This document shows, piece by piece, positions 1 through 19,819 of a stretch of 19,819 bases of DNA. The notes under the pieces are model-generated. The model had not been told where the DNA came from. It worked only from the letters and a program-made list of their open reading frames with translations, and searched no databases. The position numbers and the translations under genes are program-made. The stretch is taken from positions 1 through 19,819 of the IMG/VR virus record IMGVR_UViG_2675903413_000006. One strand, 5' to 3'. This DNA comes from a virus (lineage: Duplodnaviria > Heunggongvirae > Uroviricota > Caudoviricetes). The number at the start of each line of letters is the position of its first letter. Position 1 is the stretch's first letter.

Positions 1-1872
1 ATGAGGTTTATTGCGAAGATAATAAACGGCAGGAGAAGTGGTCTAGAGATAGGGTTGACTCCCTTTGGTCTTCAGTCCTCTAATCAGATTTATTTTCTGG
101 AAGACGAAGCTCTAGAGTTTAGGCTGGAAGCATCTGTTCCGTTGGATGATGTTTTTTTATGTCTTCATGAAAATGAAATAGGAATAACTTCTAGCAAAGA
201 ATACGATGGCCTATGGATTTACGAATGGAAACCAAAATCTATATATCGATCAACATACGAATGCTTTTTTCATAACTATTATGGTATGGCAGAGCTATCG
301 ATAGTAACGAAAATCGATGGAGTTGGCGAAAGAGTTATTATTGAACAATATTCTCCGGTTGAAGTATTTGCCAAAAAATTGAATGCTGAACGGGCAGAAA
401 AAATGCTCGATTTCTTAGCGTGTCATGATAATGATGCTCTAGCAGCATTTTTTAGAGTAACTCGTATAAATGCAGGATTCAAAGAAGGAGAAAGATCGGT
501 TAGCTTTTTGATTGAACAACTCGAACGAAATGTTTTATTGTTAATGACCGAGATTCCAAATATCTATTCCAGGCCAATCGCAAAACTTACACCAGTGACT
601 AAAGTTGTCGTAGTATCCGAAAACTCTGTTATCGATGACACCACTTTAGCTTGGATTTCAGAAAACTCTGACAACCTTTATCCAGTTAATGATCAGACCC
701 GCGCAATATTGGAACTAGATGGCACATATTATTCATCGGAACGAATATTAGAAAATCATCTAAAAGAGGATTTGAATATTTATGAAAATCAAGTTGTCCA
801 TGGCTTTATAGTATCCCTAATGCGTGCTGCATCGGAGATCTTGAGTCGGCTTGAAGAGTATCCTTCTTCCAGAATTCGTGAACAGTCGAGCATATCCGGG
901 TATATTTCATTTTTTGCACAGCTAAGTAAGTTTGCAAAGGTTGTAAATAAAAATAAAGTTTCACGATGTAAAGAATTGATTATTAATCTACAGCGTTTGA
1001 AACGAACTTTTGATGAGCGGGTTCCTGTAACTAATATTATCATTGGCACTCCGCAATTCACAAGAAAAGCTAGATACAACCTTCATTATCAGAAGGTTTT
1101 TCATAAAATAATTGCTTGGCATAGATTCGGCGCACCTGATTGGAGCGTACAGGAAGAGCTATTTTCGATACAAAGTATCCCAAAACTTTTTGAATACTAC
1201 CTATTATTTTTAATTAAGTATCACTTTGACAACGTACGGTTATTGGGCATGAAGTTTGAGCTAGTGAATGGCCCTGTAATAGAACGGAATAATTTTGAGT
1301 ATGACTGGGGAGGTTTTACTGTACAGCTTATCTATGAGATGAAAATTTGGACTCATGATCATGCAAGCTCTTTTGGGGCTTCCCTAATTAACTCCGAAGG
1401 GTGGACTCTAGACACCGTGAAAGGTAAATTGAAGCCTAGAGGGCAGCAAGGTCCTAATGCTAATCGATCACCAGACATGATAGTTTGCATTTCAACGCCT
1501 ACGGGTGAACAAAGGCAATTAATCCTAGATGCAAAGTATACTACCAGTAAAAAAGCGTTTACACATTACCTCCCCGAACTCACTATGAAATACCTTCATG
1601 GTATACATGAAAAAAATACTGGAAAAAGTTTGTCTTCTGGGCTGATGATTGTAAATCCAAGTGAATCTTGCGAGACTCGTCATTTCCATCATGAGAAATA
1701 TAGTATTTACGGAACAAGACCTATCACACCTGCTTTATTAGTAAGTTCGTTAGCTCCAGGAATGGCGGAAGATAGTGGTTCTGATTTTAGAAATAATTTA
1801 TCCCAATTCCTGACCTTAATGAGAGCCTCTCTTGAAGGTGAGCAACCATGCCATTTAGGAATCGTGGTTTAA
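1..1872 (+). CDS. Hypothetical 623-aa protein with a C-terminal PD-(D/E)xK-like nuclease motif; possible McrC-like or standalone restriction/defence nuclease
   Basis: Long uninterrupted ORF starting at window position 1; visibly AT-rich compared with the adjacent phage genes; C-terminal segment SPDMIVCISTPTGEQRQLILDAKYT fits the PD-x(n)-(D/E)-x-K pattern. The N-terminal ~480 aa are not recognised. Confidence 0.55.
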   Translation: MRFIAKIINGRRSGLEIGLTPFGLQSSNQIYFLEDEALEFRLEASVPLDDVFLCLHENEIGITSSKEYDGLWIYEWKPKSIYRSTYECFFHNYYGMAELSIVTKIDGVGERVIIEQYSPVEVFAKKLNAERAEKMLDFLACHDNDALAAFFRVTRINAGFKEGERSVSFLIEQLERNVLLLMTEIPNIYSRPIAKLTPVTKVVVVSENSVIDDTTLAWISENSDNLYPVNDQTRAILELDGTYYSSERILENHLKEDLNIYENQVVHGFIVSLMRAASEILSRLEEYPSSRIREQSSISGYISFFAQLSKFAKVVNKNKVSRCKELIINLQRLKRTFDERVPVTNIIIGTPQFTRKARYNLHYQKVFHKIIAWHRFGAPDWSVQEELFSIQSIPKLFEYYLLFLIKYHFDNVRLLGMKFELVNGPVIERNNFEYDWGGFTVQLIYEMKIWTHDHASSFGASLINSEGWTLDTVKGKLKPRGQQGPNANRSPDMIVCISTPTGEQRQLILDAKYTTSKKAFTHYLPELTMKYLHGIHEKNTGKSLSSGLMIVNPSESCETRHFHHEKYSIYGTRPITPALLVSSLAPGMAEDSGSDFRNNLSQFLTLMRASLEGEQPCHLGIVV

Positions 1873-2022
1873 GGGCCGATTCACTTTTATTGAATTTTTG
1901 TTACCGATAAAAGCTTGACATTTTAGTATCGAATGACCACCGTTATCATATTTGATTTCGGTGGTTAGCTTTCGACGTTGAAGAACTACTAGAGACTTTT
2001 ATCTAATATTAATGTTAAATTT

Positions 2023-3153
2023 TCACAACGCTACTTTGCTCCATCCCTTGCCTCGATCGTCATGATAACGATCGGTTTGTTGTTGTGTTTTATGACCAAG
2101 TAATTTTTGTGTATTTAAACCCTGTTCTTTATACAAACGTTCTGATAAAGACCTTTGTTCATGAAATGTTGCGGGAGAACCTTCACCCCAGTCAATTCCT
2201 GCTAAATCTCTTGCTTTACTGAAATTCATAGTCAAGGTATTGGCTTTAACCTGTGCGCCGCGTTCAGCCTGTGAAGTAGTACGAAAAAAATGTACAAGGT
2301 ATTGGCTGACCGCATAGTCACGGCAACGGGCTACTACATTGCGCAAACTCCAGTTAATCGCATTGAGGCGCAGGGAAAGCGGGATGGCGATTTTGCTCCC
2401 GGTTTTTTCCTGAATGACATGCAGATGATCATCCCAAATATCGCTAAATTTCATACGTGAAATATCACCTAACCGCTGACCAGTAACCAAGGCTAGCAGC
2501 ATGGCATTTCCCATGTAACGATGGCTGGCATCTGCGATATCGAATATTTTTTTCCATTCTTCGAGGCTCAGCCTTTGTCGGGTAATTTTTCTTCTTGGCT
2601 GTTTAGTAGCTAATGCAGGGTTATAGCCAGGAGGTACTTCTCCGTAGTGCTGCGCCTCTTTGAAAACATCAATCAGGACGGAGCGAACTACTTGTGCCAT
2701 TCTCGGTTGCCCAGCGGCAATATACTCATCAAGTAATTGTGCAATATCCCGGACATCAACAGCTGAAATTAGCTTCAATCCTGCCCGTTCTCTAAGTAAG
2801 GAGACAGGTTTGGCTTTCTGCTTGTAGGTGTTGAGCTTTATATCACCACTTTTCAGCCTGTCATTCTGGATCGCTTGATAGCGATCTAACCAAGTTGACG
2901 TTGTGATTGCTTTCCCTTTGCTGGTTGCGATCCTGTCACTGATGGCCAGAATCTGCCGGGTTCTTTGTTCAGCCAGGCGCGTATTGGCTTCAGTGGCAAT
3001 AGCGATAGCTTCAGTTTCGTTTGTTCCCAAAGCATGGAATTTCCCTGTTATTGGATGCTTATACCGCCAATAGACTTTATTTACCTTTCGGCTATAAAGC
3101 GGATATAAGTTAGGGACTGAAACATTATTCTTACGCGGTCTGGCTGCCATCAC
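2023..3153 (-). CDS. int: Tyrosine recombinase, lambda Int family integrase
   Basis: 376-aa ORF. N-terminal PNLY...ITGK and C-terminal LVTGQR...FHEQRSLSERLY...LLGHK...DRYHDDRGKGWSKV match the lambda Int layout including the catalytic Tyr region. The true start may be the second Met. Confidence 0.9.
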   Translation of the reverse strand: MMAARPRKNNVSVPNLYPLYSRKVNKVYWRYKHPITGKFHALGTNETEAIAIATEANTRLAEQRTRQILAISDRIATSKGKAITTSTWLDRYQAIQNDRLKSGDIKLNTYKQKAKPVSLLRERAGLKLISAVDVRDIAQLLDEYIAAGQPRMAQVVRSVLIDVFKEAQHYGEVPPGYNPALATKQPRRKITRQRLSLEEWKKIFDIADASHRYMGNAMLLALVTGQRLGDISRMKFSDIWDDHLHVIQEKTGSKIAIPLSLRLNAINWSLRNVVARCRDYAVSQYLVHFFRTTSQAERGAQVKANTLTMNFSKARDLAGIDWGEGSPATFHEQRSLSERLYKEQGLNTQKLLGHKTQQQTDRYHDDRGKGWSKVAL

Positions 3154-3376
3154 TCAAAATCCGTTGCAAAAGTAATGAGTCATTTTTCTTAATTACTGGT
3201 GTTACCAGCTCTCCAACTAACTCGGCGTCCTCACGCACTCGCCATAACCGACCTTGTTTCATTGCCGGTGGACAAAACAAATTCTGCTTAGCATAACGAC
3301 GCAACGTGGAAACGCTTGGAGGATTACTTCTGTATTTTTCAGAAGCCCATTCTTCAAGAGTTAACATTTGAAGCAT
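3131..3376 (-). CDS. xis: Excisionase (Xis-like)
   Basis: 81-aa ORF just upstream of int, overlapping its start by 23 nt as lambda xis/int do; MLTLEEWA...RRYAKQNLFCPPAMKQGRLWRV resembles the lambda Xis winged-helix region. Confidence 0.8.
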   Translation of the reverse strand: MLQMLTLEEWASEKYRSNPPSVSTLRRYAKQNLFCPPAMKQGRLWRVREDAELVGELVTPVIKKNDSLLLQRILSDGSQTA

Positions 3377-3450
3377 ATGCGATCACCTTATTACTTCAAT
3401 AACTGTTCAGTCTCTGCATATCGACCCTGCAAGGTCGGTTAGTTTCTCCA

Positions 3451-3586
3451 CAAAACAGAGAAGAACACCTGCGATGACTGCCGCCCCGGATGGATTGGGT
3501 TATGAGCCCGTCGTCCGGTGATGCTCTTCTCTGTTTTGTAAAAAGGACGGTACCAGCCGGAAGCAAGGGTACAAACTGGTACCGTC
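3451..3586. promoter_or_regulatory. GC-rich structured non-coding segment with two long inverted repeats (14 bp arms at 3451-3464/3525-3538; 11 bp arms GACGGTACCAG at 3546-3556/3576-3586); candidate operator cluster or structured RNA
   Basis: Perfect inverted repeats read directly from the sequence. ORFs across this region overlap in several frames with no RBS, so it is treated as non-coding. The GGTACC/GGTACAA motifs resemble the immunity-region operator half-site. Confidence 0.4.
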
Positions 3587-3803
3587 AAGACTACACACAG
3601 CATAAAGTTGTGGTGCCGGGTGCCTCCCGGTGCCTGGCGAAGGTTGCACACCAGACGGGTGGGTATCCACAGAAGGTCGACTGTCAGCCTCAACCTTAAC
3701 CCGCGTGCGCTGAGCCGCATTCACCACAACGCTAAGGATTCTCTCTGGTTGAAAATACTTAGCAGTTATGTGCCTGCTTTTAGCCACATCAGGCGAGGTG
3801 GAC

Positions 3804-3856
3804 CTGGTTATTCCCCAACAACAAGGATTCGGTTAATCTGGTTATCCCCAACAACG
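3804..3856 (+). repeat. Imperfect direct repeat CTGGTTAT(T)CCCCAACAAC, two copies 34 bp apart, just upstream of the 3871 gene
   Basis: Copies at 3804-3823 and 3838-3856, ending 15 nt before the ATG at 3871. Confidence 0.6.
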
Positions 3857-3870
3857 CAAAAGGAAAAGAA

Positions 3871-4305
3871 ATGTCCGGTAATATCTATACGCTGTACAAA
3901 TCCCACTGTGAAAATGTTGGAAAGTATCGGGGCATTGAAATCAGTGGGGTAGTGTCATCAGTCGAAATAAGCAAAGTTGAATCAAGGGCAACATTACTTA
4001 CTCTTCTGGACCTTGTCTTACATGAGCACCGGAAGAAATTCGGCACTCCCTATAATCAGTTGAATGGGAAAAAAGCTCTGGTTCACCTTATTCTGATGAA
4101 GCATCACTGGATGCCAAAACAGATTAATGAGATGAAATTTGATGAACTTCTTCTTTCAATTCAGGATGAACTCACGCTTGATAAAATAAGCGTAACCGCC
4201 CAGAAATTTTTAGATTATCGAGACTGGAGATCACAAATTCATCACTTTGATGATTTTGACGAAAATGAATGGGATCCTAATTTGTCTGCACAATATCTAA
4301 AGTAA
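3871..4305 (+). CDS. Hypothetical phage early-region protein (144 aa)
   Basis: ORF with a purine-rich stretch (aaaaggaaaagaa) before the ATG; no recognisable motif. Confidence 0.5.
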   Translation: MSGNIYTLYKSHCENVGKYRGIEISGVVSSVEISKVESRATLLTLLDLVLHEHRKKFGTPYNQLNGKKALVHLILMKHHWMPKQINEMKFDELLLSIQDELTLDKISVTAQKFLDYRDWRSQIHHFDDFDENEWDPNLSAQYLK

Positions 4306-4483
4306 CATCCTGTGATAAAACCGTGATTTCCTGATCCAGTTTTTTTAAGGAGTCTATTGTTTCCTGTCGATAAGACAGCACTTCACGAAGCTGGTTTATA
4401 GCTGCCAGCTTCTTTGCCATCCACTCGTAAATTTCCTCATTTGTGTATCCGGGCGCGACGATTTTTGGTTCTGTTTTGTGCAT
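4277..4483 (-). CDS. Hypothetical small protein (68 aa), first gene of the leftward early transcript
   Basis: Strong RBS (GGAGG 7 nt upstream of the ATG on the minus strand); sits downstream of the putative OL-like GGTACAT sites. Its 3' end is convergent with the 3871 gene. Confidence 0.5.
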   Translation of the reverse strand: MHKTEPKIVAPGYTNEEIYEWMAKKLAAINQLREVLSYRQETIDSLKKLDQEITVLSQDVTLDIVQTN

Positions 4484-4542
4484 TTCACACCTCCTCAAGT
4501 TATCAGTTACTTGTTGATGGGGACCAGATTGTTAAAGAGCTA

Positions 4543-4566
4543 AGCGTCCTGTAGGGCGCTTTTTTG
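4543..4566 (+). terminator. Rho-independent terminator-like hairpin (7 bp stem with one G-U pair, 4-nt loop) followed by TTTTTG
   Basis: AGCGTCC-tgta-GGGCGCT then a T-run on the plus strand; there is no T-run on the minus-strand side. Confidence 0.5.
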
Positions 4567-4717
4567 TTGCTAACGAATCATCCTGGACTTCATATGCCCC
4601 AGGCGGCTACTTCGTGGGCGTCCTGTCTGTTTGTTGTTTCTCTTTGGTACATTATGTATCTCAAGGGTACATTGTCAAGTATAAAAAAACCTGCCGAAGC
4701 AGGTTCATAAACATTGA

Positions 4718-5392
4718 TTAGGCTTTGATTTTGTATCTTCTTGGTTTTCCTGAGAAAATCACAGTTCCAATTATAGAGCAATTACCGTTGATCTTAATGT
4801 AAGGCTCAGGCCAGTTTGGGTTTAACGCTTTGAGATAACGCTGTGTCCCATCTTCTATCAACCTTTTGAAGGTGGTTTCACCTGTATCGTGCATCAATGC
4901 AATAACGTCGTCACCGTGGCAGGCAGGTACTTCAGGATCGACAAAAATCATGTCTCCCGGGCGGTACTCATCAATCATTGAATCACCTATCACCCGCAAG
5001 ATATAAGTCATTTCCCCACAGGGTACAGGGCAGGGATACGTTTCTGCTGTGCTCAAATCAACCTCAGAATATCCAACTTCTTTCCATGCTCCGGCCTGTA
5101 CCCATGATATGACAGGGACTAATGTGATTTGTTTATTAGTGATTGAAACATCAGGTTTTTTTGTGATGTTCGTTGTCTGGTGTTCTTGATCGAGCCATCC
5201 GACAGGCAGGTCGAAACATTTTTCGATGTGTCGTGCCATGCTGTCACCGATATTTTTAGTAGCACCATCTCCCATAAACCTGCTGGTCTGGGTTGGCTCG
5301 CGATCAATCATAGTGGCAAAGGAAGAATTCCCGCCAACACCATCTCTCAGTTTTCTGGCGTTAGACCGCCGGATGTCATGGATTGTTTTCAT
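4718..5392 (-). CDS. cI: Phage repressor, CI-like, with a C-terminal S24 (LexA-like) autopeptidase domain
   Basis: C-terminal VIGDSM (Ser nucleophile) and TFKRL (Lys) are the S24 Ser/Lys dyad; divergent from a cro-like gene with an operator palindrome between them. Confidence 0.85.
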   Translation of the reverse strand: MKTIHDIRRSNARKLRDGVGGNSSFATMIDREPTQTSRFMGDGATKNIGDSMARHIEKCFDLPVGWLDQEHQTTNITKKPDVSITNKQITLVPVISWVQAGAWKEVGYSEVDLSTAETYPCPVPCGEMTYILRVIGDSMIDEYRPGDMIFVDPEVPACHGDDVIALMHDTGETTFKRLIEDGTQRYLKALNPNWPEPYIKINGNCSIIGTVIFSGKPRRYKIKA

Positions 5393-5407
5393 AACGAAAT
5401 TAAAACC

Positions 5408-5428
5408 CTTGTACCGTTAAGGTACAAG
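5408..5428. promoter_or_regulatory. Operator: perfect palindrome CTTGTACC-gttaa-GGTACAAG in the cI/cro divergent promoter region; a further GGTACA half-site lies at 5471-5476
   Basis: 21-bp perfect dyad 16 nt upstream of the cI start codon and about 55 nt upstream of cro. Confidence 0.7.
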
Positions 5429-5482
5429 TATCTTGAAGGTTCATTTCAATCATGTAATATGTATACCGGAGGTACATATTGT

Positions 5483-5683
5483 ATGAAAGCGTATTGGGAC
5501 TCTTTAACCAAAGAACAGCAGGGCGAGTTGGCCGGAAAAGTTGGCTCAACACCTGGCTACTTACGGCTGGTTTTCAATGGCTATAAAAAAGCCAGTTTTG
5601 TGCTGGCTAAAAAACTTGAGCAATGCACGTCAGGTGCAATTACGAAATCTGACTTAAGACCGGATATCTATCCGAAAGATTAG
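5483..5683 (+). CDS. cro: Cro-like HTH regulator
   Basis: 66-aa product; GGAGG RBS 11 nt upstream; divergent from cI. The 5' part of the longer 5180-5683 ORF overlaps cI antisense and is rejected. Confidence 0.7.
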   Translation: MKAYWDSLTKEQQGELAGKVGSTPGYLRLVFNGYKKASFVLAKKLEQCTSGAITKSDLRPDIYPKD

Positions 5684-5714
5684 CAGAACACTTTCAATTT
5701 TTAACCACAGAACG

Positions 5715-6284
5715 ATGAGGCTAATCGTGGGTAAGCATCACTGGAAAATAGAAAAACAGCCTGAGTGGTACGTGAAAGCTGTCAGAAAAACTATCGCGGC
5801 GTTGCCGGGTGGTTACGCTGAAGCGGCTGACTGGCTCGATGTAACAGAAAACGCTTTATTCAACCGCCTTCGTGCAGATGGCGATCAGATTTTCCCGCTG
5901 GGATGGGCAATGGTTTTACAGCGTGCTGGTGGCACTCACTTCATTGCTGATGCTGTGGCGCAGTCTGCAAATGGCGTCTTTGTGTCTCTTCCTGACGTCG
6001 AGGATGTGGACAACGCCGATATTAACCAGCGTCTGCTGGAAGTCATTGAACAGATCGGCAGTTATTCAAAACAGATTCGTTCAGCAATCGAAGACGGTGT
6101 AGTGGAACCGCATGAGAAGACAGCAATTAACGACGAGCTGTACCTATCAATTTCGAAGCTGCAGGAGCATGCAGCACTTGTCTACAAAATTTTTTGCATT
6201 TCAGAAAGTAATGACGCCCGCGAGTGTGCAGCTCCGGGCGTCGTGGCGTCGATTGCTTCTGGTTGTGGAGAAACTAACGCATGA
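5715..6284 (+). CDS. Phage regulatory protein CII-like (phage 186 CII / CP76 family-like)
   Basis: Sits in the cII position downstream of cro; residue pattern ([27 protein letters not shown]...HFIADAVAQ) parallels 186 CII as recalled from memory. The start may be the GTG at 5727. Confidence 0.5.
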
Positions 6285-6466
6285 ACAGTTTAACAACACA
6301 CTACCGTCGCTCGCAACTGATTGCGCTTCCTGTACCGGGTGGAAAAGCGAAGGTGGAGTATTGCTATGCAGTAAATGTACCAGGTGAACGGTGTTTACAG
6401 AAAAGCAGCAAGCGGGCTGCATCAGGTGAAGAGTGGTATCTGTCAGGGAATTACGTGGGGGCTTAA
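6281..6466 (+). CDS. Hypothetical small protein (61 aa), translationally coupled on both sides
   Basis: ATGA overlap with the upstream stop and TAATG overlap with the downstream start; no recognisable motif. Confidence 0.3.
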
Positions 6467-7119
6467 TGAGTAATAAATATTGCCAAGCGCTGGTGGAACT
6501 GCGGAACAAACCAGCCCATGAACTGAAGGAAGTGGGCGATCAGTGGCGCACGCCGGATAACATTTTCTGGGGAATTAACACCCTGTTTGGTCCGTTTGTT
6601 CTGGATCTGTTTACCGATGGTGATAACGCCAAATGTGCCGCGTATTACACGGCGGAAGACAACGCGCTGGCGCATGACTGGTCAGAACGTCTTGCGGAGC
6701 TTAAAGGTGCTGCCTTTGGTAATCCCCCATATAGCCGCGCCAGTCAGCATGAGGGGCAATACATCACCGGCATGCGTTACATCATGAAGCATGCCAGTGC
6801 CATGCGTGATAAAGGCGGGCGCTATGTTTTCCTGATCAAAGCTGCCACCAGCGAAGTGTGGTGGCCGGAAGATGCAGATCATATTGCTTTTATTCGCGGG
6901 CGTATTGGTTTTGAACTGCCTGCCTGGTTTATCCCGAAGGATGAGAAGCAGGTGCCGACAGACGCTTTCTTCGCTGGTGCTATTGCTGTTTTCGACAAGA
7001 CCTGGAAGGGACCGGCAATCAGCTACATCGGGCGCGATGAACTTGAGGCATGTGGTGAGGCCTTTCTGGCGCAGGTTCGCCAGCAGGCAGAAAAACTGGT
7101 CAGGGAGATGGCGGCATGA
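6466..7119 (+). CDS. Phage N6-adenine DNA methyltransferase (Dam-like)
   Basis: Catalytic NPPY motif (AFGNPPYSR) and typical phage Dam-family context in the nin-like region. Confidence 0.8.
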   Translation: MSNKYCQALVELRNKPAHELKEVGDQWRTPDNIFWGINTLFGPFVLDLFTDGDNAKCAAYYTAEDNALAHDWSERLAELKGAAFGNPPYSRASQHEGQYITGMRYIMKHASAMRDKGGRYVFLIKAATSEVWWPEDADHIAFIRGRIGFELPAWFIPKDEKQVPTDAFFAGAIAVFDKTWKGPAISYIGRDELEACGEAFLAQVRQQAEKLVREMAA

Positions 7120-7442
7120 CGACGTTAACTCAATGCCAGCAGCAGGTGCTGGATATGCTGATTTCTTATCAGAAAGAACGTGGCTTCCCGCCAACCAATC
7201 AGGAGGTGGCAACCATGCTGGGATACCGTTCAGTGAATGCAGCGGTGGAGCATCTTCGCGCACTGGAGAAAAAAGGCGTCATCACGATAAAGCGTGGCGT
7301 GGCCCGGGGCATCACGCTTCATACCGCGGTGAAGGACGACGACAGCGAGGCGGTCGGGATTATCCGCTCACTGCTTGCCGGTGAGGAAAACGCAAGGCTG
7401 CGTGCAACCCACTGGTTACATGAGAGGGGCCTGAAAGTATGA
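7116..7442 (+). CDS. LexA N-terminal DNA-binding-domain protein lacking the S24 peptidase domain
   Basis: 108 aa; MTTLTQCQQQVLDMLISYQKERGFPPTNQEVATMLGYRSVNAAVEHLRALEKKGVITIKRGVARGITL aligns by eye with the E. coli LexA N-terminal domain. No Ser/Lys peptidase region follows. Confidence 0.75.
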   Translation: MTTLTQCQQQVLDMLISYQKERGFPPTNQEVATMLGYRSVNAAVEHLRALEKKGVITIKRGVARGITLHTAVKDDDSEAVGIIRSLLAGEENARLRATHWLHERGLKV

Positions 7443-7834
7443 AGCTGATCCTGCCTTTTCCGCCCAGCGTGAACACGTACTGGCGACACCCCAACAAAGG
7501 GGCGTTTGCTGGTAAGAGCCTGATAAGCGCGGCGGGGCGAAAATTCCAGAGCGCGGCGTGCGCAGCAATAGTTGAGCAGTTACGTCGTCTGCCGAAACCA
7601 ACGTCGGCACCTGCTTCAGTGGAGATCGTGTTGTTTCCTCCGGATAACAGGATCCGCGATCTGGACAACTATAACAAGGCGCTGTTTGACGCCCTGACCC
7701 ACGCGGGGGTGTGGGAAGACGACAGTCAGGTGAAAAGAATGCTGGTGGAGTGGGGACCGGTTATCCCGGAGGGGAAGGTCGAGATCACTATCAGTAAGTA
7801 CGAAAAAGCGAGTTGCAAATTAGCAACTCGGTAA
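7439..7834 (+). CDS. rusA: Holliday junction resolvase RusA
   Basis: 131 aa; LPFPPSVNTYWRH...RDLDNYNKALFDALTHAGVWEDDSQV...VEITI matches the RusA signature. Confidence 0.85.
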   Translation: MKLILPFPPSVNTYWRHPNKGAFAGKSLISAAGRKFQSAACAAIVEQLRRLPKPTSAPASVEIVLFPPDNRIRDLDNYNKALFDALTHAGVWEDDSQVKRMLVEWGPVIPEGKVEITISKYEKASCKLATR

Positions 7835-7879
7835 CGGAATTGAGCAACACCCTAAATTTGGGTATTACCTCGTTAAAGA

Positions 7880-7899
7880 TACTGTATTTATGAACAGTG
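7880..7899. promoter_or_regulatory. LexA (SOS) box TACTGTATTTATGAACAGTG upstream of the KilA-N gene
   Basis: CTGT-N8-ACAG with an AT-rich spacer, matching the enterobacterial LexA consensus; about 100 bp upstream of the ATG at 7997. Confidence 0.7.
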
Positions 7900-7996
7900 T
7901 ATCCTTGATAACTATTAAAAATCGCAGTAAGTTCATCCTGCATCAACGAAAAGGGAGTGCAGTCCCGCTCGTGGATAAAAATTTGTGGAGAAACCA

Positions 7997-8812
7997 ATGA
8001 ATCAGTTGCTTGTAATTGATGGCGTTTCTGTGCGCCAGTACTTCGAATCTAACTACTGTCTTAACGACCTTCAGAAAGCAGCTCTTCTTGCCGCTGGTGA
8101 GAATCGCTCCTCCCGTTCGCTGGAAGTTCACGAGTTTATGCGTCGTCCTGAAACGAAGGCTCTTGTGGAATTATTGGAAGAAGAAACTACGGGAGATTCC
8201 CGTAGTATTCCTGTCATCACCATTCAGGGGCGCAATGGTGGGACGTATGTCTGTAAAGAGCTGGTCTATGCATATGCAATGTGGATCAGCCCGGCATTCA
8301 GCTTAAAAGTGATACGTACTTTTGATGCGCTTCATAATTCATCACCAGAAGAAACCACATCCGACAAAATTAAATCCGGGGTCATTCTGCTTGAATCAGC
8401 AGCAAAGACTCTAAATCTGTCAAACTCCTCGAAACTTGGTGCATACCAGAAATTATCAAAGGTAGCTGGTCTTCCTGAACTTATGCCGATCTATGCCATT
8501 GATGCACCTGCTGATGCGCCAGATGGTTCAAGCCGCCCTACGCTGTCGCTGAGTGCACTGCTGAAACAGTATGGTATCCGCCTTACGGCTAATCAGGCAT
8601 ATCACCAGATGGTGAAGCTGGGGATCGTCGAGCAGCGCGAACGATACAGCCGTACCTCGATTAACAACATCAAAAAATTCTGGTCGCTGACAGCGAAAGG
8701 CTGCATGTTCGGCAAGAACATCACCAGTCCTGCAAATCCGCGCGAGACGCAGCCGCACTTCTTCGAATCCCGATTCCCTGAGCTGTTAAAGCTGCTCAAT
8801 ACCGTTCATTGA
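7997..8812 (+). CDS. KilA-N domain protein, putative SOS-controlled antirepressor
   Basis: N-terminal KilA-N-like segment (GTYVCKELVYAYAMWISPAFSLKVIR); GGAG RBS; LexA box in its promoter region. Confidence 0.7.
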   Translation: MNQLLVIDGVSVRQYFESNYCLNDLQKAALLAAGENRSSRSLEVHEFMRRPETKALVELLEEETTGDSRSIPVITIQGRNGGTYVCKELVYAYAMWISPAFSLKVIRTFDALHNSSPEETTSDKIKSGVILLESAAKTLNLSNSSKLGAYQKLSKVAGLPELMPIYAIDAPADAPDGSSRPTLSLSALLKQYGIRLTANQAYHQMVKLGIVEQRERYSRTSINNIKKFWSLTAKGCMFGKNITSPANPRETQPHFFESRFPELLKLLNTVH

Positions 8813-8813
8813 G

Positions 8814-9809
8814 GTGACCGTGAGAGCACTACTGACCCCTGAAATTGCCCCGCGTATGGGGATCGTATTGTTCAGACCAGGTTCAGAGCTGATGCCCCTG
8901 TTTATGCAGGGGCGTGTCCTGCTGGAGCCTGAGCCGGAACGTTATTCATCTTTCGCCAGTGGTGCCGTTCCGGCGGCATCACAACCGCTGGCGGATGATC
9001 CTGCCGTTCGGGCCGTGTTCCGCAATGAGGCAGTAATCCGTCGTGCTGGTGGAGTGGAATGTCTTGAAAGCTGGTTACTTCGTGAAAAAGGCTGCCAGTG
9101 GCCCCATTCTGACTGGCACAGCGAGAACATGACCACAATGCGACACGCGCCGGGCGCAATCCGTCTGTGCTGGCACTGCGATAACCAGCTGCGCGATCAG
9201 TTCACGGAACGGCTGGAATCAATGGCAACGGATAACTGTGCCCGCTGGGTGTTATCTGTTGTGCGCCGTGATCTCGGTTTTGATGATAGTCACGTTGTAA
9301 CAATGCCGGAACTGTGCTGGTGGCTGGTTCGTAATGACCTGGCTGATGCCTTACCGGAAAGTGCAGCCCGTAAGGCACTGAGATTACCTAAGCCTGTTGT
9401 GCCGTCTGTCACCCGGGAGAGTGACCTTGTTCCTTCGGTTCCTGCCACCAGCATTATCCAGGATAAAGCGAAAAAGGTGCTGGCGCTGAAAGTGGATCCA
9501 GAGTCGCCGGAGTCTTTTATGTTACGCCCAAAACGTCGCCGCTGGGTTAATGAAAAGTACACGCGCTGGGTTAAGACGCAGCCGTGTGCATGTTGTGGAA
9601 AGCCTGCTGATGATCCCCACCACCTGATAGGCCACGGTCAGGGTGGAATGGGTACAAAAGCGCATGATCTCTTTGTGTTGCCTTTGTGCAGAAAGCATCA
9701 CGACGAGCTGCATGCGGATACCGTGGCATTTGAAGAGAAGTATGGCTCCCAGCTGGAGCTGATATTTCGTTTTATCGATCGTGCGCTGGCAATTGGCGTG
9801 CTGGCCTGA
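8814..9809 (+). CDS. DUF968-family phage protein (YdfU-like) with a Cys/His-rich C-terminus
   Basis: GTG start; C-terminal CACCGKPADDPHHL...CRKHHDELH; position immediately upstream of Q as in Qin-type prophages. Confidence 0.65.
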   Translation: MTVRALLTPEIAPRMGIVLFRPGSELMPLFMQGRVLLEPEPERYSSFASGAVPAASQPLADDPAVRAVFRNEAVIRRAGGVECLESWLLREKGCQWPHSDWHSENMTTMRHAPGAIRLCWHCDNQLRDQFTERLESMATDNCARWVLSVVRRDLGFDDSHVVTMPELCWWLVRNDLADALPESAARKALRLPKPVVPSVTRESDLVPSVPATSIIQDKAKKVLALKVDPESPESFMLRPKRRRWVNEKYTRWVKTQPCACCGKPADDPHHLIGHGQGGMGTKAHDLFVLPLCRKHHDELHADTVAFEEKYGSQLELIFRFIDRALAIGVLA

Positions 9810-9826
9810 TTTTGTGGAGAAGGTTG

Positions 9827-10177
9827 ATGCGTGATATGTATGAAGTATTGGACCGCTGGGGAGCATGGGCTGCAGCAGATAACAGTGGTGTGGACTGGCA
9901 GCCTGTTGCTGCAGGGTTTAAAGGTTTACTACCTCATGGAAAGAAAACACGCCAACAATGCGATGATGATGAAGGAATCATGATTGACAGCTGTGTTGCG
10001 CGATTGCGGAAATATAAGCCAGAAGAATATGAACTGATCATTGCTCACTTTGTTATCGGTATTTCACTCCGTTCAATAGCAAAGAAACGGAAATGCTCTG
10101 ACGGGTCAATCAGAAAACAACTTCAAGCAGCAATAGGAGTGATTGAAGGTATTTTGTTGATTATTAAGCCCCTGTAG
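9827..10177 (+). CDS. Late-gene antitermination protein Q (QuuD-like small Q family)
   Basis: MRDMYEVLDRWGAWAA...AAGFKGL...CDDD...CSDGSIRKQLQAAIGVIEGIL matches the QuuD/YbcQ-like pattern; RBS GGAGAAGG. Confidence 0.8.
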   Translation: MRDMYEVLDRWGAWAAADNSGVDWQPVAAGFKGLLPHGKKTRQQCDDDEGIMIDSCVARLRKYKPEEYELIIAHFVIGISLRSIAKKRKCSDGSIRKQLQAAIGVIEGILLIIKPL

Positions 10178-10180
10178 GGC

Positions 10181-10765
10181 TTAATAATTCATATGAATTC
10201 TGTTTCCGAGATAATATAATCCAAAGAAAGTTGATACTAAGAGTTGCCAAACGAGGAAAGTAAATACAACAGTATAAACCATTAAAACAATACTGTTTTG
10301 ATAGACATTGATTAATGGTGAAAATATAGCATTAAGTATTATTATAACAATGCTTAATGCTGTTAAAAAAGAGAATAGCATGCAAAGAAATAATCGTCTG
10401 GTCAGAACCTCCTCTGAATTTACTACTTTTCCATTTTCTTTTGTTACTTTTATTTCAATAGAGGCATTTCTTTCATTGCTAATCAATGGTAAATCAATCT
10501 CAGCTCTATTGAAAGTTGCTATGGCGGCCAGAGCGGCAATATAAAACCCTGGTAGGTTAGAGATAAATGAAACGATTGATTTAATGAAACCATTGTCATC
10601 AAATAAATCTTTGACAGGGATTTTTAATAGAGTGAAAAGTACTGCTGTGATAGAAGTAAGTAGAATTGGTGCTACCCAATCATATGCAGCTTTGCCGCTA
10701 ATACCTTTAATAAAAAGATATCCAAACGGCTTGCCTAGATGAGAGAAAACTGAAAGTATTGGCAT
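10181..10765 (-). CDS. Hypothetical integral membrane protein (194 aa, about four predicted TM helices); second gene of the AT-rich cargo operon
   Basis: Four hydrophobic segments with a ~40-aa hydrophilic loop between the second and third; GAGG RBS 6 nt upstream of the ATG; 7-nt intergenic gap to the upstream gene; AT-rich. Confidence 0.6.
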   Translation of the reverse strand: MPILSVFSHLGKPFGYLFIKGISGKAAYDWVAPILLTSITAVLFTLLKIPVKDLFDDNGFIKSIVSFISNLPGFYIAALAAIATFNRAEIDLPLISNERNASIEIKVTKENGKVVNSEEVLTRRLFLCMLFSFLTALSIVIIILNAIFSPLINVYQNSIVLMVYTVVFTFLVWQLLVSTFFGLYYLGNRIHMNY

Positions 10766-10772
10766 AATAACC

Positions 10773-11795
10773 TCACATCAAATCTATCATTTTCACAACA
10801 AACTCTAGTTCAATTTTAACATATGAATCCTTCAGGCGCGAATTAAAGTTATCGATAATGCTTTTCTTAATAAATGTTTTTTCTAAATTATTAAGATTGA
10901 TGTTTGAGGTTTTGAAATCAACCTGCCTTGGTTTATTTGTTTCAGGATCTTGGAATTTAACCTTTAATTTATCATAACCACCATTCATTTTTTTATTGAA
11001 ATGAGATGCTACATTTTTAATCCATCCAATAACATTGTCACCATGATTTGGAAGTAATTTTAATGTACTTTCAGTCGGAATGTAAGGTGAATTAACATCA
11101 GGAGCATTAATTGTTCCGAATTGATCCTTGACTAATATGACATCTGATAATCCTTTTTGGCTTATTTTATTAAAAAGCTCCTTGTCTAACATTCCTGTAA
11201 ATTCAAATATTGGTTTGTATCGTATTTTTACTTCTTTTTTTGATGTTGCAGAAATAACGTTAGTTGGATGTTTTGCGGTAAATAAGTCTTCATTGTCTTT
11301 CGCCACTTCAAAGAGAATTTTGTCTAAAAAACTATTTAACCGGGCCGTAGATACACCTGGGGTAGATGTACAAATCATATCATAGGTTCTTTTATTTCCA
11401 TTTAATGATATGACAACATAGGTAGAAACTTCATAGCCTTCACCTTGTTCATATTTTGGTTGGATTTCAACGCGTTCATTAGTATTTATATTTTTTACAA
11501 CGGTAGTACTTCCATTTTTATCAACACTATTAATAAGAAGGACAATATGCGTGGGTGAGTTATCTGGAAGTAAAGGATAAAGTTGTACATCTTGGAGAGT
11601 AACTACAATATTCCCAGAATCATATGAATGAACGAGTCCCTTTTGTTTAACAATCAATGGGGCAAGCATGTACATTTCCGGAACAGGACATATACACTGG
11701 GCTTTTACCTCTTGTGTTGCCTTGGTTCTAAACTTTGTGTCAATGGTCAGACTATGATGAGTAACGAGTCTTTCGCTAGCATTTAATTTTGCCAT
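10773..11795 (-). CDS. Hypothetical soluble protein (340 aa); first gene of the AT-rich cargo operon
   Basis: Long AT-rich ORF antisense to the phage late genes; no catalytic motif recognised (no CD-NTase GS...DxD, no YADD, no Walker A, no TIR/SIR2 signature seen). Confidence 0.6.
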   Translation of the reverse strand: MAKLNASERLVTHHSLTIDTKFRTKATQEVKAQCICPVPEMYMLAPLIVKQKGLVHSYDSGNIVVTLQDVQLYPLLPDNSPTHIVLLINSVDKNGSTTVVKNINTNERVEIQPKYEQGEGYEVSTYVVISLNGNKRTYDMICTSTPGVSTARLNSFLDKILFEVAKDNEDLFTAKHPTNVISATSKKEVKIRYKPIFEFTGMLDKELFNKISQKGLSDVILVKDQFGTINAPDVNSPYIPTESTLKLLPNHGDNVIGWIKNVASHFNKKMNGGYDKLKVKFQDPETNKPRQVDFKTSNINLNNLEKTFIKKSIIDNFNSRLKDSYVKIELEFVVKMIDLM

Positions 11796-11906
11796 GAAAT
11801 CATCCGATTATGATTTTTCGATTTATTTGTTAATCTTACAAAAACGCTAACGCGTACGCAAAAATTATTGTATCGTGTTAAGAGTGGTTACTTCGCCACA
11901 CAGCTT

Positions 11907-11935
11907 AAACCCGCCGTCGAGCGGGTTTTGTCGTT
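11907..11935 (+). terminator. tR'-like intrinsic terminator (hairpin AAACCCGC...GCGGGTTT then a T-rich tract) upstream of the lysis cassette
   Basis: GC-rich stem followed by TTTTGTCGTTT, about 150 bp upstream of the holin gene; fits the lambdoid pR'-tR' arrangement. Confidence 0.6.
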
Positions 11936-12080
11936 TCTGGGGCTGGGGATTCGTTGGTCCTGGTCTATTCCGCAGTTATCCATTGGTTCGGCTTCTTTGA
12001 CGTTTCCGCTTCTAATTTGCTGTACATGATGTTCCCTCAATTTGCACCTGCTGTATCAGCGAGGTGAGAGATAACTACAA

Positions 12081-12407
12081 ATGCCTCATAACCCAAATAC
12101 CTGGCTGGAGTTGGTCCAGAGCTGGTGGCGTGGAGACACACCGCTGGGCGCAGTGATTATGTCGATTGTTATGGCTGGTTTACGTATTGCCTATTTTGGC
12201 GGTGGTGGCGGCTGGAAGCGAAAAACACTCGAAATTCTACTCTGTGGCGCTCTGACGCTGACTTTTGCATCCGCTCTTGAGTATGTCGGATGGCCTAAAT
12301 CGCTTTCTGTTGCCATTGGTGGTGGGGTGGGGCTGATCGGTGTCGATGCTATTCGTGGGGCTGCAATGAGAGTAATCGGTAATAAGTTTGGTGGCTCTAA
12401 GGAGTAA
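12081..12407 (+). CDS. Holin (lambda S-like)
   Basis: 108 aa with hydrophobic helices and a charged C-terminus, immediately upstream of the endolysin. Confidence 0.8.
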   Translation: MPHNPNTWLELVQSWWRGDTPLGAVIMSIVMAGLRIAYFGGGGGWKRKTLEILLCGALTLTFASALEYVGWPKSLSVAIGGGVGLIGVDAIRGAAMRVIGNKFGGSKE

Positions 12408-12410
12408 TTT

Positions 12411-12887
12411 ATGCAGGTACTAAATTCCCAGCGTAAAGCTTTCCTCGATATGGTGGCATGGTCAGAAGGAACGGATAACGGGCGACAACCGACACGTAAC
12501 CACGGTTATGATATTATTGTTGGTGGTGAACTATTCACTGATTACTCCGATCACCCTCGCAAACTTGTCACGCTAAACCCCAAACTCAAATCAACAGCTG
12601 CAGGCCGTTATCAACTTCTTTCACGCTGGTGGGATGCTTACCGCAAGCAGCTTGGGCTGAAAGACTTCTCTCCAAAAAGCCAGGATGCTGTGGCATTGCA
12701 GCAGATTAAAGAGCGTGGCGCTTTACCGATGATTGATCGCGGCGATATTCGTCAGGCTATCGATCGTTGCAGCAATATCTGGGCTTCACTGCCGGGCGCT
12801 GGTTACGGTCAATATGAACATAAAATCGGTGACCTGATTGCCCGATTCAAAGAGGCTGGCGGGGTGGTAAATGAAGTTGAGCTATAA
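12411..12887 (+). CDS. Endolysin, lambda R-type lytic transglycosylase
   Basis: Near-identical by recall to lambda R across the protein (QRKAFLDMVAWSEGTDNGRQPTRNHGYDIIVGGELFTDYSDHPRKLVTLNPKLKST...). Confidence 0.9.
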   Translation: MQVLNSQRKAFLDMVAWSEGTDNGRQPTRNHGYDIIVGGELFTDYSDHPRKLVTLNPKLKSTAAGRYQLLSRWWDAYRKQLGLKDFSPKSQDAVALQQIKERGALPMIDRGDIRQAIDRCSNIWASLPGAGYGQYEHKIGDLIARFKEAGGVVNEVEL

Positions 12888-13305
12888 GCTGGTTATCGCA
12901 GCATTCTTCTCTACTGTCATCGGTTCTTTCATCTGGTCTGCTAACCACTACTACAGCAAATATCAGCACGAAAAGAAACGTGCTGATGAGGCTGTACAAA
13001 ATGCTGAATCCGCAACCGCTATTACCAATAATGTCCTGCAATCACTGCAAATCGTCAATACAGTTCTGGAGGCTAACCAGCATGCAAAACAGCAGATCGC
13101 ACTGGAGTCACAGAGAACCCAGGCTGATATCAAAGTGGCTGTTGCGGATGATGATTGTGCTTTACGCCTTGTGCCTGCTGCCGCTGCTGACCGGTTGCGG
13201 AAATACGCGGACAGTTTACGTAACAGTACCTCCAATTCCGCTTCCAGCTACTCTGACTTTGGAAACGCCAGTACCGCACATACCCGATACTCTGACCTAT
13301 GGTGA
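12871..13305 (+). CDS. Rz-like i-spanin
   Basis: N-terminal TM segment followed by a coiled, charged region; start overlaps the R stop. Confidence 0.7.
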   Translation: MKLSYKLVIAAFFSTVIGSFIWSANHYYSKYQHEKKRADEAVQNAESATAITNNVLQSLQIVNTVLEANQHAKQQIALESQRTQADIKVAVADDDCALRLVPAAAADRLRKYADSLRNSTSNSASSYSDFGNASTAHTRYSDLW

Positions 13306-13396
13306 CAGTCTGGAGTTGAATGTGAGTCTGTTGTCAGCGTTGGAACAGTGTAATCTTGATAAAGCGACAATAAAAAATATCGACGCTAACAAATAA
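13148..13396 (+). CDS. Rz1-like o-spanin lipoprotein, embedded in the +1 frame of Rz
   Basis: MMIVLYALCLLPLLTGC signal with lipobox LTGC, then a Pro-rich segment; lies within and extends beyond Rz. Confidence 0.65.
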   Translation: MMIVLYALCLLPLLTGCGNTRTVYVTVPPIPLPATLTLETPVPHIPDTLTYGDSLELNVSLLSALEQCNLDKATIKNIDANK

Positions 13397-13461
13397 AAGG
13401 ACCTGTAATTTCATAGAGATGATTCCATGTTAATATTGCTTCTTTAACTGGAGGCATATTG

Positions 13462-13947
13462 ATGGATTGGAATATGTGGTCTGCTATTGGGGCTTGTGGT
13501 TCGGCTATCGCGTCTTTATGGGCGTTGTGTTATGCACGCAAGGCGTTAAACACATGGAATAGACAAGAGCAATTTAAAGTAAAGTTAGAGTTTAAACGAG
13601 CTTTACTTGAGCTGGAGGATGCCTTTGAGGCAATGCCCGATAATTGGAATTCCACACAATACAGAATAGCTAGAACAAGAGTTGAACAGCAGTATAATGC
13701 TGTTGTTCACCGAGTTGATGATGCAGCACAGCTATATTTTAAGAAAGAAAACCTTAAATCAGCATACCAGAATGCAGTGAGAGCATGGGTTTTATGTGAA
13801 GGGGGGATTAAAGATAAAAGTATACATGCTGAATGGAAACAACTCAGGACTGAATATAGTCAATATATTATGACTGGTGGAAATAAAAAGTGCTACTTAT
13901 CAAAAATAGAAAAAATATATTCTAGAATTGTCGTGTTCATAGATTGA
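13462..13947 (+). CDS. Hypothetical AT-rich moron protein (161 aa) with an N-terminal hydrophobic helix
   Basis: GGAGG RBS 7 nt upstream; AT-rich; followed by a perfect palindrome ATGAGAGAG-acaagta-CTCTCTCAT (13955-13979). Confidence 0.5.
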   Translation: MDWNMWSAIGACGSAIASLWALCYARKALNTWNRQEQFKVKLEFKRALLELEDAFEAMPDNWNSTQYRIARTRVEQQYNAVVHRVDDAAQLYFKKENLKSAYQNAVRAWVLCEGGIKDKSIHAEWKQLRTEYSQYIMTGGNKKCYLSKIEKIYSRIVVFID

Positions 13948-13993
13948 TTTTTATATGAGAGAGACAAGTACTCTCTCATTATGGATATTTTAC

Positions 13994-14344
13994 ATGCCAC
14001 CACGAACCCCAAAAGCCTGCCGCGTTCGCGGCTGCCGCAATACCACTACTGATCCGTCAGGCTATTGCGAAAACCACAAAAGCGAGGGCTGGAAGCAATA
14101 CAAGCCAGGACAATCCCGTCATCAGCGCGGTTATGGTTCGAAATGGGATGCTATCCGTGAACGTGTGCTGAAGCGTGACAAAGGCCTGTGTCAGTTATGT
14201 CTGCGTGCTGGTGTGGTGCGTGAGGCGAAAACCGTTGACCACATCATCCCTAAAGCGCATGGCGGCACAGATGCCGACAGTAATCTGCAGAGCCTGTGCT
14301 GGCCGTGTCATAAGGCGAAGACGGCCCGTGAACGGCTGAAGTGA
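13994..14344 (+). CDS. HNH endonuclease (terminase-associated)
   Basis: CxxC...HK...CxxCH arrangement with DHIIPKAHGG...NLQSLCWPCHKAKT; located immediately upstream of terS. Confidence 0.8.
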   Translation: MPPRTPKACRVRGCRNTTTDPSGYCENHKSEGWKQYKPGQSRHQRGYGSKWDAIRERVLKRDKGLCQLCLRAGVVREAKTVDHIIPKAHGGTDADSNLQSLCWPCHKAKTARERLK

Positions 14345-14469
14345 GAACCAGTTCCCACTGCCAGAGGGGAGGGGCGGGTCAAATCCCTGTGACCTGACGT
14401 CTTCCGGACTGCCCGCCCCATCGTTTTTTTATACCCGCGAAAAATGAAATTTAACCAGGAGTGCCGCAT

Positions 14470-14964
14470 ATGGCTGGAACGGCGGGGCGTTCCGGGCGTC
14501 GCCCCAAGCCAACGGCGCGCAAGGCGCTGGCCGGAAACCCCGGCAAGCGAGCCCTGAATAAAGATGAACCTGTTTTTACGCCCATCAAAGGTGTTGAGCC
14601 ACCGGAGTGGTTCGCAGAAGAAAATCTCCCTCTCGCCACGATCATGTGGCAACTGACAACCAAAGAACTCTGCGGTCAGGGCCTGTTGTGCGTGACTGAC
14701 CTCGCGGTGCTTGAGCGGTGGTGCGTGGCCTATGAGTTCTGGCGACGTGCCGTGAAAAATATTGCCATACAGGGCAACACCATCACCGGTGCAATGGGCG
14801 GCAGGGTCAAAAATCCGGAGCTGACCGCCAAAAAAGAACAGGAGTCCGAGATGAGCAGCACGGGGGCAATGCTCGGACTCGACCCCAGCAGCCGCCAGCG
14901 TCTGATTGGCCTGGCGGGGAAGAAGAAAGCCACTAACCCGTTTCTGAAAATCATCGAATCATGA
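14470..14964 (+). CDS. Terminase small subunit, P27 family
   Basis: [14 protein letters not shown]... N-terminus and size typical of P27-family TerS; AGGAG RBS; ATGA coupling to terL. Confidence 0.75.
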
Positions 14965-15767
14965 GCCGGAAATCTTACCCCAACGTAAATGCTGCAAATC
15001 AGTATGCCCGGGATGTCGTGCGCGGAAAGATTGTTGCCTGCCAGTTTGTGATTCAGGCCTGCCAGCGCCATCTTGATGACCTGATGGCGGAAAAAAGTAA
15101 GTCGTTTCGTTACCGCTTCGACAAGGACCTGGCTGAACGGGCCGCGAAATTTATTCAGCTGTTGCCGCACACCAAGGGGGAGTGGGCATTCAAACGGATG
15201 CCCATCACGCTGGAGCCGTGGCAGCTATTTGTGATCTGCTGTGCGTTTGGCTGGGTCAATAAAGGCACCCGGTTGCGCCGCTTCCGGGAGGTGTACACCG
15301 AAATCCCCCGTAAGAACGGCAAATCAGCAATCTCTGCCGGTGTTGCCCTGTATTGTTTTGCCTGTGATAACGAGTTTGGCGCGGAAGTGTATTCCGGTGC
15401 CACGACAGAGAAACAGGCGTGGGAAGTCTTTCGCCCGGCGCGACTGATGTGTAAACGCACACCCATGCTGACGGAAGCGTTCGGGATTGAGGTTAACGCC
15501 TCAAACATGAACCGTCCGGAGGATGGCGCGCGGTTTGAACCGCTGATCGGCAACCCAGGTGATGGTTCATCACCCCACTGTGCCGTGGTGGATGAATATC
15601 ACGAGCACGCCACCGATGCGCTTTACACCACGATGCTTACCGGGATGGGGGCGCGACGTCAGCCACTGATGTGGGCCATCACCACCGCCGGGTACAACAT
15701 TGAGGGACCGTGCTACGACAAGCGGCGGGAAGTTCTCGAGATGCTCAACGGTTCGGTATGTTTCTGA
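14961..15767 (+). pseudogene. Terminase large subunit, N-terminal ATPase fragment (about 265 aa)
   Basis: Walker A-like PRKNGKS and Walker B-like AVVDEYHE are present; the ORF stops after ~268 codons where full-length TerL is about 550 aa, and the following DNA encodes a tail protein. Confidence 0.8.
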
Positions 15768-18606: not shown

Positions 18607-18811
18607 ATTTCAGCGCCCGACGCTGGCAGAAAATATCAGTATGCTCCGTAACGATTTATTCGCCAGGCTGGACGTCAGCGACACGCTCCGGCGCATGGAT
18701 GAAGACGTGCGGGCAAAGGTGTATGCGGCGGCGCTGCATACGGTTTACGGTTACATCGATTACGTCAAATTGGCGGGCATAATGCCTGGCGTGACAGCAA
18801 CGGACAGTTGA
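18593..18811 (+). pseudogene. Baseplate J-like protein (Mu gp47 family), N-terminal ~70-aa fragment truncated at a deletion junction
   Basis: ...VYAAALHTVYGYIDYVKLAGIMPGVTAT matches the N-terminal region of baseplate J proteins; the ORF ends after 72 codons and the downstream DNA encodes an autotransporter beta-domain. Confidence 0.7.
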
Positions 18812-19601: not shown

Positions 19602-19613
19602 TCCCGCCGTTAG

Positions 19614-19645
19614 CTAAAAAACCGCGTCGTATTCATCGACGCGGT
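19614..19645 (-). terminator. Intrinsic terminator for the minus-strand small gene (hairpin ACCGCGTCG...CGACGCGGT followed by a T-run on the minus strand)
   Basis: On the plus strand: AAAAAACCGCGTCGtattcatCGACGCGGT; 9-bp stem, 7-nt loop. Confidence 0.7.
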
Positions 19646-19657
19646 ACATATGAAATA

Positions 19658-19819
19658 TTATTTTTTGCCGATAGCACGCATGGTGTCATCAATTGCCGTG
19701 ATCAACAGCATTTGCGGGTCTTTAGCGCAAACCTGATTCAGTTTTTCTACCACTTTGGCGCTCAGTTCCGGAGATTGCTCAATTTTTAAATCACGGCTGG
19801 CAACGCTGGCATTACCCAT
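19658..19819 (-). CDS. Hypothetical small protein (53 aa), start codon at the window edge
   Basis: Reverse-strand ORF MGNASVASRDLKIEQSPELSAKVVEKLNQVCAKDPQMLLITAIDDTMRAIGKK* followed by a terminator; likely a host gene flanking the prophage remnant. Confidence 0.5.
   Translation of the reverse strand: MGNASVASRDLKIEQSPELSAKVVEKLNQVCAKDPQMLLITAIDDTMRAIGKK

Follow-up and report, generated by a model that had tools for sequence, protein, structure and literature searches.

Probable loss of the replication module of an e14-family Escherichia coli prophage through a single 1,595-bp deletion

The stretch of viral DNA analyzed here, 19,819 nucleotides in length and referred to below as the window, carries an element that, judged by comparison of its sequence with annotated relatives, is an e14-family lambdoid prophage (SfV/SfIV/PhiR49 type) located in the icd region of E. 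coli. A gap in its early region, where relatives carry an O-like replication initiator gene, is very probably the result of a single clean deletion of 1,595 bp, the ends of which were joined at a 4-bp microhomology and which took the replication module with it. The same initiator gene appears to have been lost repeatedly within this prophage family, and two further large deletions in the window accompany the first.

An earlier note on this DNA had observed that no replication gene lies between the cII-like gene and the nin-like region, and this observation holds: ymfL is followed only by an open reading frame (ORF) of 61 codons and then by the Dam methyltransferase gene, the window ORFs compared with Pfam or PHROGs gave no match to a replication family, and the interval is 1,595 bp longer in relatives. 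The genes on either side overlap this ORF, with the TGA stop of ymfL (6282-6284) and the ATG of the ORF (6281-6283) sharing the ATGA at 6281-6284, and the TAA stop of the ORF (6464-6466) and the ATG of dam (6466-6468) sharing the TAATG at 6464-6468. In addition to the matches given in Table 1, ymfL matches phrog_101, "CII-like transcriptional activator" (7e-71), and the Dam protein differs from that of phage PhiR49_1 at 2 of 217 residues. The genes located 3' of dam (LexA-like, RusA, KilA-N, DUF968, and Q) are the counterpart of the lambda nin region. Minus the deleted segment, the window has the e14/SfV-type order, in which cI (S24) diverges from cro-ymfL(CP76)-ymfM-O-like-yfdN(PerC)-dam-lexA-like-rusA-kilA-N-DUF968-Q. 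Its integrase (Arm-DNA-bind_1 plus Phage_integrase) and excisionase (Exc) are of the IntE/XisE type, and icd lies ~3.7 kb upstream on contigs carrying the allele, an arrangement shared with K-12 and with the prophage of E. coli 82.0311.

Table 1. Early-region genes and deletion junctions of the window
Feature	Position	Strand	Evidence
cI-like repressor, ymfK/cohE homologue, S24 autopeptidase domain, intact	4718..5392	-	Pfam Peptidase_S24, E=1.5e-26; ymfK in 82.0311 and K-12 annotation
cro-like HTH gene (ymfT)	5483..5683	+	weak YdaS/HTH_3 matches; Cro or ymfT in annotated relatives
ymfL, CII(CP76)-family regulator, 189 aa, intact, final gene before deletion 1	5715..6284	+	Pfam Phage_CP76 PF06892, E=1.3e-13; NCBIfam YmfL, 2.7e-50
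61-aa chimeric ORF, scar of deletion 1	6281..6466	+	split PHROG matches; residue comparison with relatives' proteins
Junction of deletion 1 (very probable), GTGA microhomology, 1,595 bp	6384..6387	.	alignment to the 82.0311 prophage
Phage Dam N6-adenine methyltransferase, 217 aa, intact, first gene past deletion 1	6466..7119	+	PF05869, E=1.7e-46
LexA-DNA-binding-domain protein, start of nin-like region	7116-7442	+	PF01726, 2.9e-19
RusA resolvase, nin-like region	7439-7834	+	PF05866, 6.4e-15
Junction of deletion 2, GGTA microhomology, ~11.6 kb	15755..15758	.	alignment ends and junction sequences
Junction of deletion 3, 2-bp overlap TA, removes attR/icd'	18761..18762	.	L005 alignment end; identity to K-12 beyond

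E. coli 82.0311 (NZ_CP122454.1; its region is denoted L004 and supplies the coordinates used below) has a sister prophage at this icd-linked site, which, judged by its sequence, is apparently intact. Alignment with intact related prophages, which had been suggested earlier as a check, gives collinear flanks: positions 1-6387 of the window are 100% identical to L004 2001-8387, and positions 6384-15758 differ from L004 9979-19353 by 3 mismatches in 9,375 bases (99.97% identity), with the 1,595 bp between the two aligned blocks being present in 82.0311 and absent from the window. A megablast search of phage records gave the same picture, positions 4508-8000 being ~99% identical to PhiR49_1 in two pieces that lie ~1.6 kb wider apart in the phage, and the extra segment is carried by the isolated phages PhiR49_1, SfIV, and SfII. 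In PhiR49_1 the order is cI, cro, ymfL, ymfM (112 aa), "DNA replication protein O" (313 aa), yfdN (162 aa), dam, lexA-like, and rusA; SfIV has the same ymfL-ymfM-O-yfdN series and is without dam and rusA, and the remaining phage records align to only part of the query. The presence of ymfM, the O-like initiator gene, and yfdN between ymfL and dam in intact relatives bears out the suggestion of the earlier note that replication genes had been deleted. Parsimony and the broken reading frames are the grounds for taking the event as a deletion here and not an insertion elsewhere. In 82.0311 a copy of GTGA stands at either end of the segment, and the window junction itself has no IS, att site, or long repeat; on this structure, the ends were probably joined by RecA-independent illegitimate recombination or by replication slippage at the microhomology.

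The 61-aa ORF is composed of YmfM residues 1-35 joined in frame to the final 26 residues of YfdN, a protein of the PerC family. Its residues 1-41 match YmfM PHROGs 20047 and 1170, its residues 36-61 match the C-termini of the PerC-type activator PHROGs 2608 and 1324, and the fusion was confirmed by direct comparison with the proteins of L001 and L004. The ORF has no match in Pfam; the PerC domain (PF06069, ~residues 98-149 of the full protein), which a full-length relative matches at 7.5e-9, is not retained, and of the 112 residues of full-length YmfM/SfiC, the form studied experimentally in K-12, the window keeps residues 1-35 only. The fusion preserves the start/stop overlaps with ymfL and dam, and with them translational coupling. 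An in-frame outcome has a 1-in-3 chance and is hence no evidence for selection. Annotation pipelines will label this chimeric scar "hypothetical protein".

An exact-sequence look-up in Logan, NCBI, and ENA placed the identical 61-aa protein on at least 21 contigs, which trace to independent SRA runs, to the NCBI assemblies GCA_015642605.1 and GCA_017779745.1, and to one ENA metagenome. The contigs reach 110 kb and have the flanks seen in the window, including, upstream, icd, an 848-aa gene, and a DUF2357 gene. Of the eight loci that were fetched, seven match the window without substitutions, one of these showing a single gap, and the remaining locus has 99.35% identity. An exact 42-nt scan did not find the junction in the GTDB species-representative genomes. 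Taken by these matching contigs, the deletion allele is natural and inherited, carried by a closely related lineage.

Three other readings of the gap have to be weighed against a deletion. The arrangement might be native, belonging to phages that have no dedicated replication genes at this place, so that nothing is missing; even intact members of the family lack P, DnaC, and DnaB-like genes, which could suggest such a module-free design. We assign this reading next to no probability, since all the isolated phages and the near-identical sister prophage have the 313-aa O-like gene at the site, the window ORF is made of the two broken ends of neighboring genes, and the contiguous ymfL-to-dam junction is absent by megablast from the phage records and from 5,426 complete E. 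coli genomes. An intact relative with the same gene order and no replication genes, which the earlier note had named as the observation that would speak against a loss, was found in neither collection, and in the complete genomes the search with the junction region turned up only two different, independent deletions.

The same rarity, extending to the complete RefSeq E. coli and GTDB species-representative genomes, could be taken as a sign that the junction is an assembly or sequencing artefact, with a collapsed or chimeric contig at its origin. This is highly improbable in view of the recurrence of the protein and its flanks on at least 21 contigs drawn from different runs and sources, and of a clean microhomology junction at which there is no repeat able to cause collapse. 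Equally hard to sustain is the proposal, made in the earlier note, that the 61-aa ORF is a truncated remnant of an O or P replication protein. The ORF does sit at the replication-gene position and is translationally coupled on both sides; a search of the 6281-6466 ORF for O/P/DnaC-like termini nevertheless returned the YmfM and PerC families instead, and neither the residue comparison nor the PHROG matches revealed a single O-like residue in what is a YmfM N-terminus followed by a YfdN C-terminus. What a true remnant looks like can be seen in a chimera from strain 410, described below, which does keep the C-terminus of the O-like protein. A deletion thus remains the preferred reading, and we turn to what it removed.

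Four genes were affected: ymfM (L004 8281-8619) lost codons 36-112, the DUF4222 ORF that overlaps it (L004 8460-8639) was removed, the O-like initiator gene (L004 8629-9570; 313 aa) was removed entirely, and yfdN, of the PerC family (L004 9567-10061), lost the first 138 of its 164 codons. For the O-like protein, the PHROG matches are to phrog_391, "replication initiation O-like" (E=1.5e-133), and, more weakly, to DnaD-like loader and replisome-organizer families. In Pfam it has an N-terminal HTH_36 winged helix only (4e-11), together with weak DnaD_N and RP-C matches and no match to any lambda O family, and comparison with NCBIfam and PDB sequences gave no informative match. It is therefore described here as a predicted replication initiator, a role based on the PHROG match, the position of the gene, and the repeats within it. 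Of the O/P or helicase-loader genes that the earlier note had expected, the O-like initiator is indeed missing, whereas a P, DnaC, or other helicase-loader gene is absent even from intact relatives, no P, DnaC, or DnaB-like gene lying beside O in PhiR49_1, SfIV, or 82.0311. On this evidence, the replication module of the phage family is a single gene of the HTH_36-type O-like kind. Neither the window nor its intact relatives possess the combination of an O-family initiator and P that defines a lambda-type O/P module.

The O-like gene contains a 15-bp unit with dyad symmetry that is repeated 4.3 times in tandem (L004 8938-9001), accompanied by further degenerate copies of the repeat, several dyad symmetries, and a local dip in GC content to ~40%. 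In lambda, the origin lies within O and consists of iterons followed by an AT-rich stretch (PMC6022878), and by analogy we infer that the phage origin resides in these iteron-like repeats; no copy of the motif, with up to 3 mismatches allowed, is found anywhere in the window. Loss of the initiator together with the putative origin would mean that replication could not be rescued by an initiator supplied from elsewhere, that is, in trans, because the origin, if it does lie in the repeats, was deleted along with the initiator gene.

The gene ymfM has been identified as SfiC, an SOS-inducible division inhibitor of e14 (bioRxiv 10.1101/2020.11.19.390815), and the deletion therefore also truncates a host-toxic gene. 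As a separate observation, ymfM (112 aa) overlaps the DUF4222 ORF in the -1 frame (L004 8281-8639, equivalent to L015 9823-10181 in K-12), and the DUF4222 ORF has a TTG start with AAGGAG upstream of it. Within the overlap, each of the five variable sites falls at a third position of the DUF4222 frame, where the change is synonymous, and at a second position of the ymfM frame, where it is nonsynonymous; upstream of the overlap, all four variable sites are third positions in the ymfM frame. A 63-aa YmfM PHROG also exists. The region may in reality encode a short YmfM together with DUF4222. Nearly the whole DUF4222 ORF is included in the SfiC clone that was published, and the protein behind the SfiC phenotype may merit a re-check.

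Relative to 82.0311, the window bears the marks of two other large deletions. Deletion 2 joins the gene for the large terminase to a DNA-circularization (tail) gene and removed the portal, protease, capsid, head-tail, sheath, tube, and tape-measure genes; the L004 alignment ends at 15758 and the L005 alignment begins at 15743, and the junction was not found in complete E. coli genomes. Deletion 3 links the gene for baseplate J to ycgH, a chromosomal pseudogene, with the L005 alignment ending at 18762 and positions 18761-19819 being 100% identical to ycgH-ymgD of K-12, and its losses comprise the tail-fibre genes, pin, attR/icd', and the host genes located between e14 and ycgH in K-12. The cleavable repressor, the early-right operon, Q, and the complete lysis cassette were kept intact. 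We infer that the element is a remnant unable to excise, replicate, or package, excision and packaging being precluded because attR and most of the morphogenesis genes were removed. Loss of the replication gene is, in this setting, an ordinary step of prophage decay.

Several other features of the window deserve mention in their own right. A ymfH-like ORF beside xis (3396-3787, minus strand; L004 5407-5727) carries a frameshift in the 82.0311 annotation and has the identical sequence in the window, so the early-left arm was degraded or minimal before the three deletions. The short xis-cI region was considered as another fresh deletion and rejected, the region being identical in 82.0311 and the xisE-to-ymfK interval of K-12 e14 similarly short. 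Between Q and the holin gene, a moron position at which relatives have OmpD or a KAP NTPase, the minus strand carries genes for 194-aa and 340-aa proteins (10181-11795) that match both parts of the PADLOC candidate defence system PDC-M53 (B 2e-54, A 2e-32). Positions 1-1872, together with an upstream gene for an 848-aa protein (L007 1165-3711), form cargo between icd and intE, in the position of lit/ymfD/ymfE in K-12 e14. This cargo encodes a DUF2357/PD-(D/E)XK protein and the 848-aa protein, the latter matching PADLOC candidate PDC-M26A (1e-16), and is probably a restriction-like defence pair.

Placed beside its relatives, the element belongs, by gene content and order, to the e14/SfV-type family, in which it represents a new deletion allele, and lies outside the lambda O/P module family, because the intact relatives have neither P nor a Pfam match to lambda O. 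K-12 e14 is of the same family and occupies the same chromosomal region (98.8% identity from ymfK to ymfM, ~91% in intE/xisE), and it too has lost its replication function by one deletion and late genes by a second. In K-12, however, the cut in O comes after codon 78 and the loss extends to yfdN, dam, rusA, Q, and the lysis genes, with ymfM/SfiC and attR (icdC) being kept, whereas in the window ymfM is cut, O is wholly gone, the region from dam through Q to lysis is kept, and attR is lost. The 82.0311 prophage and the phages PhiR49_1, PhiR29, SfIV, and SfII share the gene order of the window from cI to Q (SfIV without dam and rusA), with backbone identities of 100% and 99.97% for 82.0311 and 97-99% for the phages; unlike the window, they retain ymfM, DUF4222, the O-like initiator gene, and yfdN, and 82.0311 also retains a complete morphogenesis region and attR. 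The lambda O-P/ori arrangement resembles that of the intact relatives in having an initiator gene after cII and binding-site-like repeats within a coding region, and differs in that the O-like protein of the relatives is of the HTH_36 type, P is absent, and the repeats measure 15 bp as compared with 18-19 bp in lambda.

Comparison of the breakpoints indicates that this initiator gene has been lost separately at least four times, in the window lineage, K-12 e14, YD786, and strain 410. The K-12 e14 break falls in O, after L004 8862, and fusion with the terminase gene at this point created the ymfN chimera (oweE'-'aaaE); that of YD786 also falls in O, after L004 8864, with the sequence resuming at 10005, close to the end of yfdN. 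In strain 410 the break comes after ~codon 5 of ymfM, an unaligned stretch of ~105 bp leads on to the C-terminus of O, and yfdN is kept; the resulting in-frame chimera (L006 4191-4379; 62 aa), made of the YmfM N-terminus and the O C-terminus, is coupled to yfdN. Two of the three small deletions produced an in-frame fusion that remains translationally coupled to the gene after it. The strain 410 prophage also has rusA fused to the portal gene.

With regard to where these breaks fall, the left breakpoints of K-12 e14 and YD786 lie 2 bp apart, 7-9 nt downstream of a GGCGCGTCG, and the right breakpoint of the window lies 0-4 nt downstream of a second GGCGCGTCG, with the right end of YD786 ~25 bp further on (regions compared: L004 8847-8864 and 9971-9982; L003; L015). 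This clustering, noticed after the fact, could be a hotspot or a coincidence. A broader proposition, that loss of the initiator and putative origin is a recurrent and selected step in the domestication of e14-family prophages, spanning at least four lineages with breakpoints clustered near two GGCGCGTCG copies, strikes us as rather unlikely. If such selection did operate, the favored remnants would be those that cannot replicate, stay transcribable, and keep dam, rusA, Q, the lysis genes, and candidate defence cargo.

The persistence of the deletion can be considered in the light of work on lambda, where a trapped inducible prophage kills the cell by in-place replication and survivors, the replicative-killing-defective (RK-) mutants, are defective in O, P, or ori (PMC6022878). 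In an attR-less remnant, loss of O and the origin would remove lethal in-place replication after SOS induction ("replicative killing"), and loss of ymfM would remove a division inhibitor (SfiC). By analogy with lambda, loss of the replication module and ymfM may have been tolerated and plausibly favored. The competing account, that the deletion was a neutral accident of decay with no selection against replication or ymfM, falls a little short of an even chance in our estimation; it bears on persistence only and is compatible with the structural conclusion. Arguing for it are the two other large deletions in the same element, whose 2-4-bp microhomologies are typical of random erosion, and the 1-in-3 chance of an in-frame result. 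It is harder to reconcile with at least four separate losses of the initiator gene in the prophage family, with the intact state of the repressor, early operon, and lysis genes, and with the killing of the cell, on induction, by trapped lambda prophages still able to replicate (PMC6022878).

The flagged gap therefore reflects, within a well-known prophage family, a deletion allele specific to one lineage, and not a phage with unusual replication, and it counts as a fourth independent loss of this initiator gene in the e14-type family. The allele provides a natural and precisely defined e14-type variant, predicted to be replication-dead and ymfM-dead, that has a near-isogenic, apparently intact sister in 82.0311, and the two could serve for examining replicative killing and the effects of SfiC in a system other than lambda.
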